Positions 1-26,686 of a stretch of 45,294 nucleotides of DNA are shown in pieces (positions within the stretch are counted from its first letter, which is position 1; every line of letters begins with the position of its first letter). Source of the stretch: a virus; the IMG/VR virus record IMGVR_UViG_2728369221_000001, positions 1 to 45,294 of that record. One strand, 5' to 3'. Below the pieces are notes generated by a model. That model saw only the letters and a list, made by a program, of their open reading frames with translations, had not been told where the DNA came from and did no database searches. Made by a program: the position numbers and the translations under genes.

Positions 1-95
1 CGCCCACCAGCATGCAGAGGACGCCATCCGCAACCGCGAACCGTTCACGACGGCCTATTACGTACTTCGAGCGGCACGCATCTTCCGCGCGGAAG
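1..95. repeat. 95-bp terminal direct repeat (copy 1), identical to 45200-45294
   Basis: cgcccaccagcatgcagagg...ttccgcgcggaag occurs at both ends; an ORF reads through the junction in frame. Typical assembly overlap of a circular or permuted genome. Confidence 0.95.
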
Positions 96-199
96 GCAAG
101 CACGACGTCGAACTCGACCACCACCGACTGTTCGACGAGGTCGTCGATCGAACTCCCATCCGCGATGCGCTCACGCAGGCCGTGATCCTCGACGACTGA
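2..199 (+). CDS. 3' part of the origin-spanning ORF that starts at 44781
   Basis: Frame 2 is open (AHQHAEDAIRNREPF...VILDD) and ends at TGA 197-199. Confidence 0.85.
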   Translation, partial: AHQHAEDAIRNREPFTTAYYVLRAARIFRAEGKHDVELDHHRLFDEVVDRTPIRDALTQAVILDD

Positions 200-219
200 C
201 GGCGCCGGCCCACCCTAAC

Positions 220-564
220 ATGTCCTCGGAGAACATCCCCAGAGAGCCGAGTGCGTACCGCCCGACGCTGCATTTCAAGGAACGCTTCGAGGACGCGTTC
301 GACGACCACCGGCGCCACTTGGACGGCGACATCGTCCGGCGCTGTATCACGGACGGCGAGGTCGTCACGCAGGGCCGCAACGCCGCTCGGTTCGTCGAGG
401 ACATCGAGGGCGTCACGTACGCGATCGTCGTCAACCCGCGTTCTCGCTGTGTCGCCAGCGGGTACCCGGTCTCGTTGGACTGGGACAGCGCCGCCGAATC
501 GGGGCGCTGGACCGAGTCGCAGTTAGAAGACATCAACGCGTTTCTCACGGACACATCCCGATGA
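220..564 (+). CDS. Small protein resembling DUF4258/RelE-type RNase-fold proteins
   Basis: 114 aa, acidic; YRPTLHFKERF...IVRRCITDGEV...YAIVVNP...VASGYP pattern. Fold call is by eye. Confidence 0.5.
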   Translation: MSSENIPREPSAYRPTLHFKERFEDAFDDHRRHLDGDIVRRCITDGEVVTQGRNAARFVEDIEGVTYAIVVNPRSRCVASGYPVSLDWDSAAESGRWTESQLEDINAFLTDTSR

Positions 565-820
565 CGTCGTAAGTCCCAGACGGGCAGATCGAGGGCACTG
601 CATCGCTTCGGGACCCGCTGACCCACCCAACCAGTCTCCCCGTGGTACCGGCCAAACTGTCACAGTTCTCGGTGGGATGACGCGGCGTCCTGACTCTGCC
701 GGGCACTGTCCGCCGGCCCGATCACTCGTGGCACAACCGCGAGCCGGGCGCAGCGGCGGTCGCGGTACCCAATCCGTCCCGGTCACATGCTCCACCGAGC
801 ATCCCCTTTCGATACTGACT

Positions 821-912
821 GCCCGACGCTGAGAAGGACAACCACCGCGAGCGCACAATCCGTTAGTTGTGGACCGCCGCGGCGATCGTCGGTTCAAATC
901 CGACCTCGGGCG
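821..912 (+). ncRNA. Degenerate tRNA-like element
   Basis: T-arm GTCGG-TTCAAAT-CCGAC (888-904); acceptor GCCCGA (821-826)/TCGGGC (906-911); anticodon-position stem CCGCG (845-849)/CGCGG (878-882); 5-nt variable loop CGATC; TTTT at 913-916. D-arm is degenerate and the anticodon loop is replaced by a 28-nt hairpin insert. Confidence 0.7.
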
Positions 913-919
913 TTTTATC

Positions 920-1009
920 ATGCACCTACCAGACGATGCGCGAGCCACTCGACCCGCTTGCGCACGATACGACCACCGCGTCGGCGTCGACGCCAACGAT
1001 GCATCATGA
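920..1009 (+). CDS. Possible 29-aa peptide (MHLPDDARATRPACARYDHRVGVDANDAS)
   Basis: ATG 7 nt after the tRNA-like element; stop overlaps the next ATG (ATGA). Confidence 0.4.
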   Translation: MHLPDDARATRPACARYDHRVGVDANDAS

Positions 1010-1338
1010 GCACGACAACTCCCAGCCGGCCATGGTACTGCGTCGACAGGCTCGTCGACGAGTACGTCCGGATCGCGGTCTCGCAGGACGGAGGCAATGA
1101 TCTTCGGATGCTTAAGGCGCTCAAGATCGTCCGCAGCATCCTCGTCATCGCGGCGATCGGCACGATCTCCATCTACGCGCTGTACCTCGGCGCCGACCCG
1201 ACACTCGTCGCCGGCCTCAGCCTCCCGTCGCTCGCGGCCTACGCCGGCGTCGAGGCAGCCGACTACGGTGCGCTCGTCCAAGGCTTCCGCGAGGCACAGG
1301 CCAAATCGCAGTCCACCGACGACACGGAGGGGTCCTAA
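1006..1338 (+). CDS. Membrane protein, 110 aa, about 2 TM segments (holin-like candidate)
   Basis: IVRSILVIAAIGTISIYALYLG and LVAGLSLPSLAAYAGV hydrophobic stretches, charged C-terminus, position just upstream of the terminase genes. Confidence 0.6.
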   Translation: MSTTTPSRPWYCVDRLVDEYVRIAVSQDGGNDLRMLKALKIVRSILVIAAIGTISIYALYLGADPTLVAGLSLPSLAAYAGVEAADYGALVQGFREAQAKSQSTDDTEGS

Positions 1339-1339
1339 G

Positions 1340-1588
1340 ATGCCAGATCTTCCTGACGGCGCCACCGAGGACGAGACCGAGCGTGACGGGTTCTTATCGT
1401 ATGCCATCGAGTGGCACGCATTCGCCCACGGCGTCTACGACGGGATGCGGACGCCCAAAGCCCGCCCGGGCGAGCTCCCCGACATCGAGGACGTCCAGCA
1501 GGAACCGCACTACTTCAAGGGCGGCTACGTCATCGGGACGCTGCTCCAGCTCCTGATCCTCGCCGCCTTCGGCTCCGCACTGTTCTGA
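1340..1588 (+). CDS. Small protein with C-terminal TM anchor, 82 aa
   Basis: Acidic N-terminus then YFKGGYVIGTLLQLLILAAFGSALF; ATG at 1340 directly follows the previous stop. Confidence 0.7.
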   Translation: MPDLPDGATEDETERDGFLSYAIEWHAFAHGVYDGMRTPKARPGELPDIEDVQQEPHYFKGGYVIGTLLQLLILAAFGSALF

Positions 1589-1590
1589 CC

Positions 1591-1728
1591 ATGACCTTCC
1601 GCTGTGTCGGCTGTGATCAAGACGTGCCCTTCGACCCTGCGGGCGAGACCGAGGACGGCGAACCGCTGTGTAACCCTTGCGACACAACACGCCCACGAGT
1701 TCGGACGCCGTGGGGGTGGACAGACTGA
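1591..1728 (+). CDS. Zinc-finger microprotein, 45 aa
   Basis: CVGC...CNPC; starts 2 nt after the previous stop. Confidence 0.65.
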   Translation: MTFRCVGCDQDVPFDPAGETEDGEPLCNPCDTTRPRVRTPWGWTD

Positions 1729-1747
1729 CCAACGGCATCCTGCACGC

Positions 1748-2149
1748 ATGACTAATGTCTTCGTCGAACCGGACGACACGGCAGCGCAGCTACGCGAGTA
1801 CGTCCGGTCGAACCCCGGCGTCCGAAAGGACGAGTACGACTACGACGACGTCGACCCTGTCGAAGGCGCGTGCTACCTGCTCGCCGAGGCCTACTTCCAT
1901 GCCACCAGTGGGCGCGACGCCTTCGATGTCTACCGCCTCGACTGGAGCGAGGTATCCCCGGACTACGAGGGCGCCCACTGGTTTCTCCGTCGCACCGCGG
2001 ACGACATCGTCGTCGACCTCTCGCTCCCGACGCCGGAGGACGGCGTCGATGTGCCCTGGGACGTGGCGCGACACCGTGCGTTTATCACCGGCTACACGCC
2101 CTCGAACCGCACGCAAACCGCGCTCTCGGCTCTCGGACTGGAATCCTAG
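1748..2149 (+). CDS. Putative transglutaminase/papain-like Cys hydrolase, 133 aa
   Basis: EGACYLLAEAY...GAHWFL...IVVDLS gives Cys-His-Asp order and spacing like transglutaminase-fold catalytic triads. Confidence 0.5.
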   Translation: MTNVFVEPDDTAAQLREYVRSNPGVRKDEYDYDDVDPVEGACYLLAEAYFHATSGRDAFDVYRLDWSEVSPDYEGAHWFLRRTADDIVVDLSLPTPEDGVDVPWDVARHRAFITGYTPSNRTQTALSALGLES

Positions 2150-2163
2150 ATGCAATCAACCCC

Positions 2164-2802
2164 ATGAACGACGAGAGTGACGATGCTGAGCGCTGTCCGG
2201 GAACGAACCGGGAAGGCGAGCCGTGCGGCCATCCAGCCGGCTGGGGCACCGACAACGACTCGGGACCCTGCAAGTTCCATGGCGGCGCCGGCGGCTCCGG
2301 TGGCGCACGCGAAGGCGCCGGCGCACCCGAGGGCAACACGAACGGCGTCACGCACGGCGCCTACGCCGATCACAACTCGTACTACCAAGATGTCCTCGAC
2401 GACGACCTCCGGGAGTTCGTCGACGACGTCTTCGCGGACTACCTCGACCGCTACCGTGATCTCCATGGAGACCCCCCGCTGGGGATCGAGTCGGAGCTCT
2501 TCCGTATCGCCGTCACGCACGCGAAGGACATCGGCCTCGATCGGTGGGCCGACGAGAAGCCCGAGGGACTAGAGAGCGGCCACCCGCTCGTTGACGAGGA
2601 GACCGAGATCGTGCCGATCGGCGAGGGCGAGATCGAGAGCCAACGACGGTACCGCGAGTCGGTCGTGCTGGCCGCGCAAAAGAAGCTCTCGAACGACCGC
2701 AGGATGTGGCTGAAAGACCTCGGGCTCCTGGAAGACCCTGACTCGCAGGACGCCCAAGCAAAGGAAGACGTTGCTGATGCCCTGCGCGATGTGTTGCAAT
2801 GA
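2164..2802 (+). CDS. terS: Terminase small subunit, 212 aa
   Basis: C..C..C.FHGG zinc motif plus GAPEGNTNGVTHG, typical of TerS N-termini; ATGA overlap with terL. Confidence 0.8.
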   Translation: MNDESDDAERCPGTNREGEPCGHPAGWGTDNDSGPCKFHGGAGGSGGAREGAGAPEGNTNGVTHGAYADHNSYYQDVLDDDLREFVDDVFADYLDRYRDLHGDPPLGIESELFRIAVTHAKDIGLDRWADEKPEGLESGHPLVDEETEIVPIGEGEIESQRRYRESVVLAAQKKLSNDRRMWLKDLGLLEDPDSQDAQAKEDVADALRDVLQ

Positions 2803-4418
2803 GCACGACTACCAGCTCCGACGCCGGCGTCGACGTCGACACGATCCGCGAGGTTATGGCGCAGTACGCGCCGTCGACGGGCCCGGATCGCTACGCCCGG
2901 TTCATCGAGGACCTGCTCGACCTGGAGCGGACGTTCGTTCAGGACCACATCCTCGCAGCGCTCCACGAACACGAGCAGGTGGTTGTCTCGGCGGCCAACG
3001 GCGTCGGGAAGAGCTATATCGCAGCGGCGGGCGGTGTCGCCGGGCTGCACTGCAACCCGGACACGATCGTCAACGTCACCGCGGGGACGAGCGGGACGCT
3101 GAAGACGAACATCTGGAAGCCCGCCCGCAGCCTCTACCGTGACAGCCCGCTTCCCGAGATGTTCGGCGGGCGCACGATGGACGGCGACCGCGAGATCCGC
3201 ACCGGTTTGGACGACGAGTGGTTCTTCGAGTGCGTCTCCCCGCGATACCCCGATGACCTTCAGGGCCCGCACAACGACCACGTCATCTATATCGTCGAGG
3301 AAGCGGACAAGCCCGGCGTCACGGCTGACCACATCGAGAGTGTCCGGTCGACTGCGACGGACGCTGACGACCGCGTCCTCGTCATCTCAAACCCGCCGGA
3401 CGGGTCGGGAAACATCGTCCACCAACTGATCGAGAACGACGAGTGGCACCACCTCCAGTTCCCGACCTGGGAGTGCCACAACGTCCGCATCGACCGCGGC
3501 CTTGATCAGGGTGAGGAGATTGGCGGGCTCGCCACCACTCACAAGCTGCGGAAGGACTGGCGTGAGTACCACGACGAAGAGTGGCCCGGGCTGGAGCAGG
3601 CGATCCGCTGGTCGGATCCGTGGCTCGGCGCCGATCCCGAAAATCGCAGCGCTGTCCTCCCTGAGAACCTCAACGAACTCCCGAACGACGAGTTCCGCGA
3701 GGATCTCCACTCGTTGTGGTATCGCCGGCGCTGCGGGATCGTCCCGCCGGGCGGCGCCAGCGTGCTCCGGCCGATCGAGCCCGGCGATGTCCGTTCGGCG
3801 TACGACCGAAAGCCCGGCCAGGTCAGGGAGACGCCCCAGGCGGTCGGGATCGACGTTGCCCGGACGACGGACAGCACCGTGATGATCGGACTGCACGATC
3901 TCGAGCTGCGTGTCCACTACGCCGAGCAGGGCGACAACCACGAGCAACAGAAGCCCGAGGTCGTCGACGGGACGGCGTCGACGCCCGGGCTGAGCGAGTG
4001 GCCGAATCCCGATGTCGCCGTGGACAAGGGCTACGCACCCGGCTTCCACGACTACGTCAACGACCGGTGCCCGAACGTGACGGGGTTCCAGAACGGCACG
4101 AAGCCCGTGGCGATGACACGCTGGAAAGACAAGTGGGCAGAGGCGCTCCACCACTTCGGCGAGTTCCTCGAACAGGGCGGCAGTATCGCCAACTCAGAGC
4201 TTCGGAAAGAGGCACTGGCCGCGGCTCGCGTCATCCAGTACGAGGAACGAACGCTCGACAGCCGTGGGAAGAATGGCGCCGAAGTCTATCAGGCGACGTC
4301 GAAGGACGCGATCAAAGAGGAGCTCGGTCACTCGCCGGACTACCTCGACGCCGCGCTGATGGCGCTGTGGGTCGACCGCGTCGACTTCGAGGAAGAGAAG
4401 CCCTCACCAACTTGGTAA
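2799..4418 (+). CDS. terL: Terminase large subunit, 539 aa
   Basis: Walker A AANGVGKS, Walker B YIVEEAD, VISNP coupling motif, nuclease VGIDVAR and HSPDYLDA. Confidence 0.95.
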   Translation: MSTTTSSDAGVDVDTIREVMAQYAPSTGPDRYARFIEDLLDLERTFVQDHILAALHEHEQVVVSAANGVGKSYIAAAGGVAGLHCNPDTIVNVTAGTSGTLKTNIWKPARSLYRDSPLPEMFGGRTMDGDREIRTGLDDEWFFECVSPRYPDDLQGPHNDHVIYIVEEADKPGVTADHIESVRSTATDADDRVLVISNPPDGSGNIVHQLIENDEWHHLQFPTWECHNVRIDRGLDQGEEIGGLATTHKLRKDWREYHDEEWPGLEQAIRWSDPWLGADPENRSAVLPENLNELPNDEFREDLHSLWYRRRCGIVPPGGASVLRPIEPGDVRSAYDRKPGQVRETPQAVGIDVARTTDSTVMIGLHDLELRVHYAEQGDNHEQQKPEVVDGTASTPGLSEWPNPDVAVDKGYAPGFHDYVNDRCPNVTGFQNGTKPVAMTRWKDKWAEALHHFGEFLEQGGSIANSELRKEALAAARVIQYEERTLDSRGKNGAEVYQATSKDAIKEELGHSPDYLDAALMALWVDRVDFEEEKPSPTW

Positions 4419-4424
4419 CTTTTC

Positions 4425-6380
4425 ATGAGTTCAAACACACAGAACGGCGAGCAGCCGGACGCTGGCGAGATCGCCGTCCGGGCGAACGCCGTCATCGACG
4501 GTCTGCGGTGGTCGCTCGCAAACGAGCTCGGCGATTCCGGGCATGACGACCGTGACTGGTACGACACCTTCGGCTGGCCGAACCGCGGCAACAACGCCGA
4601 CTGGGACGCCGACAACTACTACGCGCTCTACCTGCGCAACGCCTACGCGTACGCCGTCGTCGCCCAGAAGCCGAAGACGACGTGGAAGCACGCGCCGGAG
4701 GTCCGCGATCGCGCCGATCAGGACGAAGACGCCCAGCGCGACCCGACCGAGTTCGAGCGGTCGATCACCAAGCTCGATCGAGAGCACGATCTCTGGCACT
4801 ACGCCCACCGGGTCGACCGGATGGCCGGGATCGGCCGGCACGGGCTGCTGGTGATCGACTACGCTGACACGAACGGTCCGGAGGACTTCGAGGCGCCGTT
4901 CACTGGCGTCGAGAACGCGTCGGGCCTCGACATGATCAACGGCTACCGGGTCTACCCGGAGCCGATGATCGAGGACATCGAGTGGGGCGCGCCCGGCTCG
5001 GACCGCTGGGGTAAGCCGGTCGAGTACCAGATCGACCTCGGCGACGACGCCGACGCCGGCACGCAGGATGAGGAGAACACGACGCTCACCATCCACCACT
5101 CGCGGGTGATCGACGTCCCGGCGCGCGTCTTGGACGACGACGAGACGCGTGCCCGACCGCGACAGGAGCCCGTCGTCAACAACATCCTCGACATCGAGAA
5201 GGCGCTCGGCTCGACGGCCGAGCTGTCCTACCGTGCTGCCGACTACGGCCTGAACGTCAACCTCGACCCGGACAAGGTCGACACGTCGGGCGACGCGCTC
5301 GACATGATGGAGGAGGACCTACAGGACTGGTATCACGGTCTGCAGCCGTTCCTTCGCACAACCGGCGCCGAGGTCAACCGCCTTGGCGGCGAGGTGAAGG
5401 ACCCGACTGGGATCGTCGACAACGAAGTGCGCGCGATCTCGACGCAGACGGGCATCCCGCAGCGCGTCCTCGAGGGCGCATCGCTGGGCGAGCTCGCCAG
5501 CGCCGAGAAAGACGAGCGGCAGTACCTCAGCATGATCGGCGAGCGCCAGCAGCAGTACGCCGAGCCCTACATCGCCCGGGCGGTCATCAACCACCACATC
5601 GACGACGGCGTCCTGCCGGAGCCTGCTGGCGAGTGGTTCGACTTCATCTGGCCGGACCTCACCGAGCTCTCCGAACAGGAGGAAGCCAACATCCAAGAGA
5701 CGCGGTCATCGACGGTGGCCAACCTGCAGGCGGCGGTCCCGGGCCTGAGTGGCGAGCGCGCCGAACGGTTCGTCGAGAAGGGCGAGTTCCCCGAGCGCGA
5801 GGACACCACCAGTAACGCACCGCTCGACGAGGACGACCCGCGCGTCCAGCAGTCGTTCCAAGCGCTCACCGGCACGGCGAACGCCACTCGCTACGAGGCC
5901 GGCGGCTGGGTTGCGACGCCTGACGGGAAGGGCCTCGTCGACGACGCCGTCCAAGAGGGCACCGTCGACGGGATGGAGGCCAGCAGCGAGTCGCCCGTGT
6001 ACGCCGTGATCATGCTCGATGAGACGGCGGTCAACTTCTACCATGCCGGTGACCTCGAGGCGGCCGAGGGGCCGGACGTCGACGTTGCGGACCCGGCGGC
6101 CGATGTCGTAGAGGCGAACAGCACCACCAGCACGCTGGCCGCGTGGCTGGATGTTCTCGGCGCCGACATCACGGCCAACGACTGGTCGATGCCGCCGTCT
6201 TGGCGACAGTCCGAGACGCCGGCGCGCGTGATCCTGCTGGATGCGTGGTCGTCGATGGGTGCGCAGTTCGACTGCGGCGGCGCGTGCTGCATGGGCGAAC
6301 TGAAGGATGAGGAATTGTGTGCCTCAATGAAAGATTCCGCGTTGGGGACCACTGCTTGGAGAGGGGGATGGGCCGACTGA
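4425..6380 (+). CDS. Portal protein with C-terminal extension, 651 aa
   Basis: Follows terL; TIHHSRVI, TGIPQRVLEG and FIWPDL motifs typical of DUF1073-like portals. Confidence 0.9.
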   Translation: MSSNTQNGEQPDAGEIAVRANAVIDGLRWSLANELGDSGHDDRDWYDTFGWPNRGNNADWDADNYYALYLRNAYAYAVVAQKPKTTWKHAPEVRDRADQDEDAQRDPTEFERSITKLDREHDLWHYAHRVDRMAGIGRHGLLVIDYADTNGPEDFEAPFTGVENASGLDMINGYRVYPEPMIEDIEWGAPGSDRWGKPVEYQIDLGDDADAGTQDEENTTLTIHHSRVIDVPARVLDDDETRARPRQEPVVNNILDIEKALGSTAELSYRAADYGLNVNLDPDKVDTSGDALDMMEEDLQDWYHGLQPFLRTTGAEVNRLGGEVKDPTGIVDNEVRAISTQTGIPQRVLEGASLGELASAEKDERQYLSMIGERQQQYAEPYIARAVINHHIDDGVLPEPAGEWFDFIWPDLTELSEQEEANIQETRSSTVANLQAAVPGLSGERAERFVEKGEFPEREDTTSNAPLDEDDPRVQQSFQALTGTANATRYEAGGWVATPDGKGLVDDAVQEGTVDGMEASSESPVYAVIMLDETAVNFYHAGDLEAAEGPDVDVADPAADVVEANSTTSTLAAWLDVLGADITANDWSMPPSWRQSETPARVILLDAWSSMGAQFDCGGACCMGELKDEELCASMKDSALGTTAWRGGWAD

Positions 6381-23460: not shown

Positions 23461-24381
23461 TTACCGCGTCTGGATCTGGTTGAGTTGTCGCTGGGTGTTG
23501 TCCGGCGTCGAGGCGATGTAGCGGCGGGCGGTGCTGATCTGCGACCAGCCGAACATCGCTTGGAGCGCCGGCGCGGCGAGGCCCTTCCCGGCCAGATGCG
23601 TCGCAGCAGTCGCTCTGAGGCCGTGCGGGTTCGTCGTCTCCTCACTCAACCCGTCGGCTTCCCGCAGCGCTTCGTCGACGCGACGGTTGACGGCTTGGCG
23701 CGATCTCGTCCACTCGTCGAACCGGTCGAAATACTGTTCGAGCACGAGCTCGGCACGCGAATCGAAGTCGAACGGCACCGACCGGGCGGCGTTCTCTGTT
23801 TTCGCGGTCCACATCTGCTCTTCCGCTTCGTCCTGCGTCACCTCGTTTTCCTGTTGGTAGCGGCGAGCGACATCGTCGAGCGCCTCGCGGACTTCGTCGA
23901 CGTCGTCGACGGCGCCCGCGTTCGCCAGTAACTCCTCAACCTGCCGGTCGAGAGCATCCTTTCGGAGGTCGCCGTCGATGTGGATCACGTGGATGGTCTG
24001 AAGTTGGCGCTGGAGTTCGCCGGGCAACGAGGGCATCTCCGAGAGTTGTTCTTGCAGGGCTTCGAGGCGCGCCTCGGCCAGCGACAGCTGTGAATACTCA
24101 GCGCGCTGGGCGGCTTGCTGGCGGCAGTAGCCACAGATCCCGCCGTCCTTGCCCTTCTCACACGGGAGATGGAACGGGATGTCGATCATTCGTTTGCGCC
24201 AGTTCACCCAGTCGCCTTTCATGTGGCAGATTTCGCCCGGGCGAAGTCCGAGGCGGCCGCCGACGAACGCGACGAACCGTGCCTCGAGGCTGCGCAGGTC
24301 GCAGTCGATCGCTCTGGCGCCTTGGAGGAAGCGCTCGAACTCGTAGTCGTCGAGCGCGTTCTCTTTGCTGTGCGTCGTCAC
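23461..24381 (-). CDS. int: Tyrosine recombinase 1 (catalytic domain with Cys cluster and helical insertion), 306 aa
   Basis: LGLRPGE (R), AKT (K), HGLRATAATH (HxxR), FGW...ARRY (W, Y). Confidence 0.92.
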   Translation of the reverse strand: MTTHSKENALDDYEFERFLQGARAIDCDLRSLEARFVAFVGGRLGLRPGEICHMKGDWVNWRKRMIDIPFHLPCEKGKDGGICGYCRQQAAQRAEYSQLSLAEARLEALQEQLSEMPSLPGELQRQLQTIHVIHIDGDLRKDALDRQVEELLANAGAVDDVDEVREALDDVARRYQQENEVTQDEAEEQMWTAKTENAARSVPFDFDSRAELVLEQYFDRFDEWTRSRQAVNRRVDEALREADGLSEETTNPHGLRATAATHLAGKGLAAPALQAMFGWSQISTARRYIASTPDNTQRQLNQIQTR

Positions 24382-25357: not shown

Positions 25358-26686
25358 TTAGTCGGCGAGTTGTTCGGCGTGCTCGATGTACGAGGGCAGC
25401 CGGTCCCAGAGGTCGTCACGGCGCTGGATGATCGGCTGGAGCCGGTCGAGCGCCCGGAGGTCCTCGGCGTCGACGTCGCCGTCGACGATCAGGTCCAAGA
25501 GGTCAGCGCCTTCGTCGGCAACGGTCGGCTCGACGAGCCGCGGCGCCTGCCCCAGCTCGGCGATCGTCTCGCCGGGACACCAGAGGCACTCGTCGCGGTG
25601 CCGTGGCGTCCGGCGGCCGCAGTGGTCGCAGACGACCGGAACGATCGGATCGGGATCTTCGTCGTAGTCGATCTGTGCGCCGTCGGCCATCGCTATGTGC
25701 TTCCGGCTTTCCGACCCGAAGACAGCGATGTAGTGGGCGACGACTCTCGACCCGCGGGACCAGCCGAAGTGAAACTCGAGGTCGCGCTGGCTGACGTAGC
25801 GACTCGCAGCGAGGATGCTGGCGCGCGACTTGCGGAAGTGCTCGGGGTTCGCCGGCTTCGTGACCCCTGCGCGCTCGGCAGCCCGCTTGATGTTTCGGCG
25901 GATGTCTTGGTAGCCGACGTGCTCGTCGTCGTACCGTTTCGTCCAGAGGTACGTGTCCGACCGAGGGCCGCGATCGGTCGCGTTCGCCGGGTGAGCTTCT
26001 TCCATCCACAGCCGGACGTACGGCGCGCCGACGTCGACGCGGACGGTGCGGGCGAACGTCTTCGAGTCGGACTCGATTGACACGAGGAGGTGGTCGCCGC
26101 GGTCGTCGATCTGGCCGAACGTGAGCTCCCAGAACTCACTCATCGGCCGGCAGCCCAGCGCCCAGAGCAGCGCGGTCATCGCTTTCTCGCGCTCGTGGTT
26201 GCAGTGCTCGATGATCTCGACGATGTCGTCCCAGAACAGCACTTCCGAGGGTTCGGGTGCGGGCTGATCGTCCTCGACGTTGCCGAGCTCGACGGCGCCG
26301 AAGCGCTCGGGGTAGTCCTCGTCCGGCGCGTCCGGTGCGAGGAAGCGGCCCCAGCTGCGGAGCGCCGAGTAGTAGTTGTCGAGCGTGTAGCCGTTGTCGT
26401 ACTCGCCGTCAACCCAGCGGACGATCGCGTCGATCGCGTCCTCGCCGGCGTCGGGGTCGAGCGTCTCAACGAGCGCGTCGGTGTGCTTGGCGAGCCGGTG
26501 CAGGTGTGAGAGGTAGCTCTCGTGCCGGGTGCCGCTGATCTGGTGTTTTGCGCTGGACGTCCGGTTGTGGGCGTCAAGGGCGTCGTGGTAGTCGAGGAGT
26601 CGTTGCCGTTCGGTGTCGCTGATCTCGTCGTCGCTCCGGATGTGCCGGAGCCGTCTGTCGATGACTTTTTGATAGTCGTCTTGCAT
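25358..26686 (-). CDS. int: Tyrosine recombinase 2 (integrase with N-terminal helical domain and C-terminal Zn ribbon), 442 aa
   Basis: LGCRPMSE, SKT, EHFRKSRAS, FGWSRGS, AHYIA; CDHC...CLWC; likely ATG 26686. Confidence 0.93.
   Translation of the reverse strand: MQDDYQKVIDRRLRHIRSDDEISDTERQRLLDYHDALDAHNRTSSAKHQISGTRHESYLSHLHRLAKHTDALVETLDPDAGEDAIDAIVRWVDGEYDNGYTLDNYYSALRSWGRFLAPDAPDEDYPERFGAVELGNVEDDQPAPEPSEVLFWDDIVEIIEHCNHEREKAMTALLWALGCRPMSEFWELTFGQIDDRGDHLLVSIESDSKTFARTVRVDVGAPYVRLWMEEAHPANATDRGPRSDTYLWTKRYDDEHVGYQDIRRNIKRAAERAGVTKPANPEHFRKSRASILAASRYVSQRDLEFHFGWSRGSRVVAHYIAVFGSESRKHIAMADGAQIDYDEDPDPIVPVVCDHCGRRTPRHRDECLWCPGETIAELGQAPRLVEPTVADEGADLLDLIVDGDVDAEDLRALDRLQPIIQRRDDLWDRLPSYIEHAEQLAD

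Follow-up and report, generated by a model that had tools for sequence, protein, structure and literature searches.

The late genes of the viral DNA analysed here (IMG/VR record IMGVR_UViG_2728369221_000001, of which the whole stretch of 45,294 nucleotides (nt) is referred to as the window) are preceded, at positions 821–912, by a sequence that resembles a tRNA gene without an anticodon loop. The question raised by this locus is what a tRNA-like RNA would be doing in such a place. The window comes from a haloarchaeon and represents either a temperate tailed virus or a plasmid-prophage, and the first-pass annotation, made from its sequence, had proposed that the element is not a decoding tRNA, and that it might instead be a processing signal for a nearly leaderless mRNA, a decoy for host tRNA nucleases or a relic att target. 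The answer reached here, from comparison with related viruses, is that there is about an even chance that 821–912 is a co-transcribed, tRNA-derived element (t-element) that would be cut by RNase P and tRNase Z, leaving a late mRNA with a short leader.

The structure of the element was examined in the sequence and in its minimum-free-energy (MFE) fold, and the structural statements of the first-pass annotation were all borne out at the positions it had given. The element is about 92 nt long and lies, with all of its parts, on the + strand. The 5′ strand of the acceptor stem is at 821–827 and the 3′ strand, with the discriminator G912, is at 905–912; in the MFE fold 821–826 pair with 906–911 (6 base pairs, bp), and C827 is mismatched with C905. 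The T-arm (888–904) has a 5-bp stem (888–892/900–904), the loop TTCAAAT (893–899) and the tRNA features G53–C61, G52–C62 and U60, so that acceptor and T-stem together comprise 6+5 bp with one mismatch at their junction. Its signature, GGTTCRAATCC, occurs once in the 45-kb window, versus an expected 0.06 occurrences. The cut by tRNase Z is predicted to fall after position 912, and a U-rich, 7-nt trailer or leader, TTTTATC (913–919), lies between the element and the ATG at 920.

The remainder of the element is less like a tRNA. The D-like region (828–844) has no D-stem, with at most 2 bp (836–837 with 842–843) in the MFE fold, and keeps a GG dinucleotide and the motif GGACAACC. At the place of the anticodon arm there is a bulged hairpin of 38 nt (845–882), in which an outer stem (845–849/878–882) is followed by an inner one (851–859/866–871 and 875–877) and a loop at 860–865. 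Its 28-nt insert (850–877) consists of a bulged A850, the helix GCG/CGC (851–853 with 875–877), a GAC bulge (872–874) and the helix CACAA/TTGTG; the loop had earlier been drawn with 8 nt, and in the computed fold has 6, owing to an additional U·G pair. Folded alone, the hairpin 845–882 has a free energy of –17.1 kcal/mol and a z-score of –2.82, while the z-score of the entire element is –1.86. A 5-nt linker at the variable-loop position, CGATC (883–887), connects the hairpin to the T-arm.

It is apparent that the element is tRNA-like and is not a tRNA. The stem 845–849/878–882 closes the 28-nt bulged hairpin, not a 7-nt loop with U33 and an anticodon, and 828–844 cannot form a D-stem of 3–4 bp. 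No tRNA was called at the element by ARAGORN, whether introns were allowed or not, and a search of Rfam with 301 nt gave nothing at the gathering score and no match to the tRNA family (RF00005) even at E≤10. The view that this is not a decoding tRNA was accordingly upheld. The possibility of a hidden or intron-bearing tRNA was pursued by means of single deletions of 1–45 nt and was rejected: 10 of 3282 deletions gave a call, all of them removing 1–2 nt in 826–835. The call was a borderline, class-II-like tRNA-Val(CAC); in the fold that was inspected the D-stem is only 1 bp long, the anticodon stem is mismatched and the extra arm is G·U-rich, and the called anticodon loop is missing from the homologous element of the related virus L010. 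The suggestion that the insert recalls an intron in a bulge–helix–bulge did not survive, as its geometry is 1–3–3 nt (bulge, helix, bulge) instead of 3–4–3; an intron that would be a substrate of EndA was likewise rejected, since removal of the insert leaves no anticodon loop and the geometry is missing in L010 and L038. A K-turn in the GAC bulge was also discounted, no tandem G·A pairs being seen by inspection.

Alignable copies of the element were found in two relatives, at 5526–5607 of L010 (an IMG/VR contig whose large terminase, TerL, is 92% identical to that of the window) and at 4142–4230 of L038 (TerL 66% identical). Each difference in the stems among the three copies preserves or improves pairing. 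Two pairs of the T-stem are altered on both sides: in the order window, L010, L038, pair 2 is U–A, C–G and C–G, and pair 3 is C–G, C–G and G–C. Acceptor pairs 5–68 and 6–67 are altered only by way of G·U pairs in L010 and L038; position 7–66, mismatched in the window and in L010, is by eye a U–A pair in L038. As G·U pairs function only in the + strand RNA, they point to a signal at the RNA level. Overall, 94% of the cells across the three copies pair, versus no more than 54% when the 3′ partners are slid out of register.

Outside the stems, 4 of the 5 bases of the linker are common to the three copies, and the 22-nt block at 828–849 is identical in the window and L010, though no stem is formed there; L038 can be aligned over the D-like region. 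A long irregular hairpin replaces the anticodon arm in all three, with different sequence and length. The spacing to the ATG is also similar, with CTTTTTCC (8 nt) in L010 and TACACC (6 nt) in L038. A pattern scan of viral and metagenome contigs for the D-like block together with the T-loop found only the contig of L010, other matches being attributable to chance. A covariance model built from the window and L010 matched nothing in 9 other genomes of the host’s family, and among the relatives it matched only a true tRNA-Phe.

It was in the wider group of relatives, gathered through TerL, that the element proved to belong to a family. Nearly all of these viruses have a non-coding spacer of 160–1050 nt between the early or replication genes (MCM or PrimPol, a MarR-like protein and a protein of ~180 amino acids, aa) and a late block consisting of a small membrane protein, terS, terL and portal. 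A descriptor was devised that specified the T-loop T[TG]C[AG]AN[TC], a 5-bp T-stem, an adjoining acceptor 3′ strand and at least 6 of 7 acceptor pairs, and 208 kb of related viral genomes were searched with it on both strands. There were 11 matches, all of them on the coding (+) strand and either inside the early/late spacer or at its edge. Ten spacers were tested (4256 nt in total) and contained 10 matches, versus a mean of 0.033 in 1000 dinucleotide shuffles. Six matches were in loci that had not been used in designing the descriptor: one in L003, three in L004, the second one in L008 and one in L031. One further + strand match, inside the spacer or at its edge, came from each of three more distant relatives; one of the three also had a single minus-strand match ~0.75 kb downstream of the spacer. 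Altogether, + strand matches were present in 11 related viruses. The combination of G53–C61, G52–C62 and U60, which the descriptor does not require, was present in 12 of 13 viral elements and 34 of 45 host tRNAs, versus 2 of 67 non-tRNA matches in the host.

The placement of these elements is equally consistent. In nine viruses (the window, L010, L038, L003, L034, L035, L037, L039 and L008) the last element lies 6–25 nt before the first late open reading frame (ORF). The elements range in size from 53 to 103 nt, with interiors that are free in length and sequence and are not conserved; L035 has the 53-nt mini-version. Spacers may hold more than one unit. That of L004, which is 1054 nt long and is downstream of a homologue of the window’s 114-aa ORF (220–564), contains three in tandem (60, 100 and 69 nt, within 2284–2942). 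L008 has an intact tRNA-Phe(GAA) on the coding strand at 3705–3779 (equivalent to 4108–4182 of L033) and, ~290 nt after it in the same spacer, a 63-nt tRNA-like element at 4067–4128. L034 has, at 5076–5150, a near-canonical cloverleaf (D-stem GTGG/CCAT, T-arm loop TTCGATT) whose anticodon-position loop, TTCTCAAC, has 8 nt; neither ARAGORN nor Rfam called a tRNA there. An ordinary viral tRNA gene is the probable evolutionary source of the element. In the integrated relatives L003, L035 and L037 the element is intact, with viral genes on both sides, and in L030, also integrated, there is a form that has no T-loop.

What RNase P and tRNase Z recognize in a tRNA is the acceptor and T-arm minihelix, and exactly this part is conserved here, whereas the D-stem and the anticodon loop have been lost. 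In the window an acceptor is stacked on a 5-bp T-stem with a tRNA-type T-loop, and the pairs are kept in L010 and L038; the D and anticodon arms are dispensable or absent; and a conserved ATG, before which an mRNA end is predicted, follows on the same strand after 7 nt. The host itself encodes RNase P RNA and tRNase Z, as well as a mimic of an acceptor and T-arm (T-loop TTCGATT) in its 23S–5S spacer, at ~183–232 on the minus strand of host contig C10 (L024), which ends 1 base before the 5′ end of 5S rRNA. Two reports on Haloferax (PMC4326828, PMC3296008), citing Hoelzle et al. (2008, 2012), describe such a haloarchaeal t-element upstream of 5S rRNA that is cut by tRNase Z; they also give the tRNase Z rule as a cut after the discriminator, and state that in vivo both RNase P and tRNase Z cleave t-elements. 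In Haloferax, the 5S t-element has also been put to use as an engineered signal for RNase P and tRNase Z (PMC4326828, PMC7714728). Of the functions proposed in the first-pass annotation, that of a processing signal freeing a near-leaderless mRNA has the best comparative support, consisting of the covarying stems in L010 and L038, the positions before the late ORF in eight further relatives, the host 5S mimic and the two host enzymes; the cleavage is a prediction from sequence.

We infer transcription through the element, both cleavages and any effect on late translation or mRNA stability, as follows. The element would have no promoter of its own and would be part of a long + strand spacer RNA, originating in the early or replication genes or at a promoter at the start of the spacer, and extending into the late block (membrane proteins, terS, terL and portal). 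The host enzymes would act on this RNA at two places, RNase P at G821 and tRNase Z after G912; these cuts would detach the structured leader, free a tRNA-like RNA of ~92 nt, and leave a late mRNA that begins with a 5′-monophosphate and has a leader of 7 nt ahead of the ATG at 920, which approaches the leaderless form commonly used by haloarchaeal ribosomes. Host tRNA genes have a TATA box ~33 nt upstream and none is found upstream of 821–912, which fits co-transcription. The tRNA-Phe of L008 overlaps the upstream ORF where that ORF ends, and is not preceded by a TATA-like motif, so that the spacer RNA there must have RNase P and tRNase Z as its processing enzymes. Taken together, these two facts make it most likely that the spacer in this group of viruses is one RNA with its neighbours. 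A more general proposition is offered tentatively, as possible and no more than that: that the early-to-late transcript of a lineage of temperate tailed viruses of haloarchaea is punctuated by mini-tRNAs, one to three in number and lacking an anticodon, at which host RNase P and tRNase Z gate the conversion of a long leader to a near-leaderless late mRNA.

A number of observations weigh against processing of the element as a t-element. The first-pass annotation had made its case depend in part on covariation of the stems in related viruses and, while compensatory and wobble changes are indeed present in L010 and L038, the covariation with only three sequences is not significant in a shuffle control, 54 of 500 shuffles reaching the observed value. 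The mismatch at 7–66 in the window and L010 is at the junction of acceptor and T-stem. The descriptor was devised after four elements had already been seen, and it is subject to ascertainment bias, in that it will find decaying tRNA genes that have kept the T-arm and acceptor. No such element is present in the spacers of L005 and L042, and those of L030 and L032 have Y-shaped structures without the T-loop signature, which indicates that the element is dispensable. The predicted leaders are not strictly leaderless, being 6–25 nt in most cases and ~170 nt in L031 and L004. A TATA-like sequence at 806–815, CTTTCGATAC, may be a promoter and could set the transcription start inside the element. Finally, Hoelzle et al., in 2012, reportedly found that other predicted tRNA-like structures of Haloferax were not cleaved in vitro.

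The element is not alone in its spacer. A second, more degenerate Y-shaped, tRNA-like element is located upstream on the + strand, at 698–783, with a closing stem (698–703/778–783), a hairpin (725–743) capped by a CACAA loop, and a T-like hairpin (762–777) of 4 bp with an 8-nt loop that adjoins the closing stem. The same architecture is seen in the MFE folds of the window and of L010. Homologous elements are found in L010, L031, L037 and L039, and in the five-sequence consensus 7 of 21 pairs have a compensatory change. The ACAA motif of the D-like region of 821–912 reappears as a hairpin loop in related elements. Of the two tRNA-like units that follow one another in this structured spacer, 821–912 is evidently the better preserved.

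Comparison of the relatives also revealed motifs at the start of the spacer (558–615 in the window, + strand), namely CCCGATGAC and, 15–35 nt further on, CGAGGG.C.GCATCG. The former is present in 11 loci, those of the window and 10 relatives (as one variant in L031), and the latter in most of them, whatever gene is upstream; they may serve the spacer transcript as a promoter or operator, or may be a packaging signal. As a separate observation, CTTTC(C/G)ATAC or a run of T recurs directly after tRNA-like elements and directly before ATGs, at 806–815 and 913–919 in the window and in L030, L031 and L032, and has the look of a common trailer or leader, or else of a weak TATA-like box.

These features of the spacer bear on what else the element might be. 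One reading, the likeliest of the alternatives though itself unlikely, is that the Y-shaped RNAs at 698–783 and 821–912 constitute a cis-acting structured leader that is not cleaved by tRNA enzymes, but binds a viral or host protein and so controls late transcription, translation or RNA stability. The conserved MarR-type or ~180-aa zinc-finger proteins encoded just upstream in the relatives are candidates for the binding partner, and the T-loop would act as a general RNA tertiary module. Such a leader is in keeping with the two tandem elements, their conserved loop motifs (ACAA pentaloop and T-loop) and compensatory changes, with the conservation of the spacer-start motifs (CCCGATGAC and CGAGGG..GCATCG) in the 11 loci, and with a position at the early/late boundary downstream of conserved regulator-like genes. 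The features that have been kept, however, are exactly those of a tRNA T-arm (G53–C61, G52–C62, U54, C56, A58 and U60) on a seven-position acceptor, the 3′ strand of which adjoins it, and the freely varying interiors fit enzymes that read a minihelix better than they fit a specific binding partner. Rather improbable, and somewhat less favoured again, is a decaying viral tRNA gene without present function, the spacer being the site of tRNA genes in this group. The intact tRNA-Phe in the same spacer of L008 and L033 argues for this, as do the near-canonical cloverleaf of L034 with its 8-nt loop, the match of the window’s acceptor and T-loop to host tRNA-Asp at 22 of 24 positions, the lack of an element in L005 and L042, and the eroded T-loops of L030 and L032; for any single element, a pseudogene is possible. 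It is more difficult to reconcile decay with the presence of 13 degenerate elements versus 1 intact tRNA in compact genomes, with the consistent placement just before the first late ORF, or with retention of the window type between viruses whose TerL proteins are only 66% identical. Moreover, between the window and L038 the two T-stem pairs that differ have each changed in both partners, and the two acceptor differences retain pairing or add to it; the changes in L010 likewise preserve pairs, while the interior has been rewritten.

A third view shares all of the structural evidence for a t-element, and holds that the released tRNA mimic is a small RNA with a role of its own, either as a sponge or decoy that would engage those host enzymes or defence nucleases whose target is the acceptor/T-arm half of tRNAs, or as a mimic that is CCA-tagged or aminoacylated. 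The identity of the D-like block 828–849 in the window and L010, stemless as it is, hints at constraint beyond the minihelix. This view is nevertheless improbable: anticodon nucleases would find no anticodon loop to act on, conservation across the family does not extend to the interiors, no partner gene is evident, and Pfam gave nothing for the flanking proteins. In the joining of a tRNA-like domain to a long stem the element does resemble Y RNAs of the YrlA type, from which it differs in that its tRNA-like module is not permuted; a YrlA-type RNA bound to Ro60 was considered and rejected, as no TROVE match was found in the 95.7%-complete host assembly or in the virus. The least probable of the readings, and a very doubtful one, places the signal in the DNA, either as a tRNA-like attP or its relic for one of two integrases, or as a late promoter in which the A/T-rich T-loop, with its centre 24 nt before the ATG, is a TATA box. 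No other spot is as A/T-rich as the T-loop, which in several relatives is 23–34 nt before the ATG, though some T-loops (TGCGACT, TGCAACT) would make poor TATA boxes, and the G·U pairs and strand bias point to RNA. As regards attP, there is precedent in the tRNA-like genes of haloviruses HF1 and HF2, which fold unconventionally, score poorly as tRNAs and are attP sites (PMC8707807, PMC7230728). That of HF2 adjoins the integrase, and its last 57 nt exactly match host tRNA genes; the window element, by contrast, is ~22 kb from both integrase-family genes on the circle, and no host tRNA match of this kind was found. Its best match in the host, the 22 of 24 positions of tRNA-Asp, has differences that are compensated within the element, and no att-like identity exists between the contig and the host chromosome. 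Among 400 other genomes of Halobacteria that were sampled, a single place, which was not examined, matches 888–912 within 2 mismatches. In the integrated relatives L003, L035 and L037 the element is intact and internal, not split to the ends of the provirus. On these grounds (integrase distance, host identity, the 400-genome pattern search and the integrated relatives) attP was ruled out as the principal explanation, and the relic att target of the first-pass annotation was not supported.

Interpreted as a t-element, the sequence has counterparts among known systems. It is most like the haloarchaeal 5S t-element in being a mimic of acceptor and T-arm, without a working anticodon arm, that is directly before an RNA, on the same strand and in the same class of host. 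It is unlike that element in being viral, in preceding a protein-coding late operon with a 7-nt leader, and in having a length of 92 nt with a D-like region and long hairpin; its cleavage, too, is predicted. A similar relationship holds for plant mitochondrial t-elements and mitochondrial tRNA punctuation (Forner et al. 2007, PMC1920247), in which the ends of tRNA-like structures in polycistronic RNAs are 5′ or 3′ ends of mRNAs and are ascribed to RNase P and RNase Z; those belong to organelle genomes and their ends have been mapped, whereas the window is an archaeal virus with predicted ends. MALAT1 mascRNA (PMC8457004) is comparable in that a tRNA mimic lets RNase P or tRNase Z define the ends of a neighbouring transcript that is not a tRNA, but that system is eukaryotic and nuclear and the neighbouring RNA is non-coding. 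Closer to hand, the tRNA-Phe(GAA) of L008 and L033 has the same spacer, strand, and T-arm and acceptor design, while the window element has no D-stem, 7-nt anticodon loop, or ARAGORN or Rfam call. Among viruses, the tRNA-like units of murine gammaherpesvirus 68 are mimics that define the ends of neighbouring non-coding RNAs, again in a eukaryotic nuclear setting.

In plant mitochondria and in the leader of haloarchaeal 5S rRNA, t-elements were thus known already; what is new, as judged from the literature searched, is that a tRNA-like unit, conserved and independent of an integrase, stands where the early and late genes of archaeal tailed viruses meet. To our knowledge, the mode by which early and late expression are separated in these viruses is largely unknown. 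The majority of haloarchaeal mRNAs are leaderless, and tRNA punctuation has so far been a hallmark of mitochondria. If the t-element interpretation is true, a viral tRNA mimic that recruits the host’s tRNA-trimming enzymes would be a simple, post-transcriptional way of making the 5′ end of a late mRNA. In the literature searched, halovirus tRNA-like sequences are described only as attP (PMC8707807, PMC7230728, PMC7911831). For annotation, the family shows a second class of such sequences, internal, far from the integrase and missed by tRNA finders. Haloarchaeal genetics could also draw on the compact elements (53–103 nt) as natural processing cassettes, a use to which the 5S t-element has already been put.

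The nature of the window was judged from the assembly and from its gene content. The window is one entire contig (C7) of a 3.16-Mb haloarchaeal assembly of 11 contigs, in which the rRNAs are archaeal and the tRNA genes include intron-bearing Trp, Met and Gln. An exact repeat of 95 nt is present at the contig ends (1–95 and 45200–45294), so that the contig closes as a 45,199-bp circle or is terminally redundant; the terminal repeat and the lack of an att-like match to the chromosome suggest an episomal prophage. The TerL gene (2799–4418) encodes a protein 43% identical to that of Halorubrum virus HATV-3, which is the closest isolate and has a different genome layout. The two integrase-family genes are at 23506–23706 and 25721–26230. 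A megablast search with 1–6000 of the window gave no match to near-identical known phages, and the sole match in a distant search with 560–1010 was a chance 30-nt stretch of tRNA-Met.

The gene that follows the element differs in part from the earlier description, which had the element ending 7 nt before a run of membrane genes starting at 920. The distance and the gene run were confirmed, but the first ORF (920–1009, + strand) is a 29-codon remnant of a 159-codon gene, and the first membrane gene extends from 1006 to 1338. Pfam assigned no family to the flanking proteins (the 114-aa ORF, the 159-aa ORF of L010 and the 110-aa membrane protein), and a RelE/DUF4258 identity for 220–564 gained no support at E≤0.01. 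L010 has the intact, acidic 159-codon ORF at 5616–6095, which at its end overlaps the membrane gene’s homologue by ATGA. Judged by this comparison, the ATG at 920 is a real, conserved start. The remnant in the window keeps the start, the stop and the ATGA overlap with the membrane gene, which suggests that translational coupling is being preserved.

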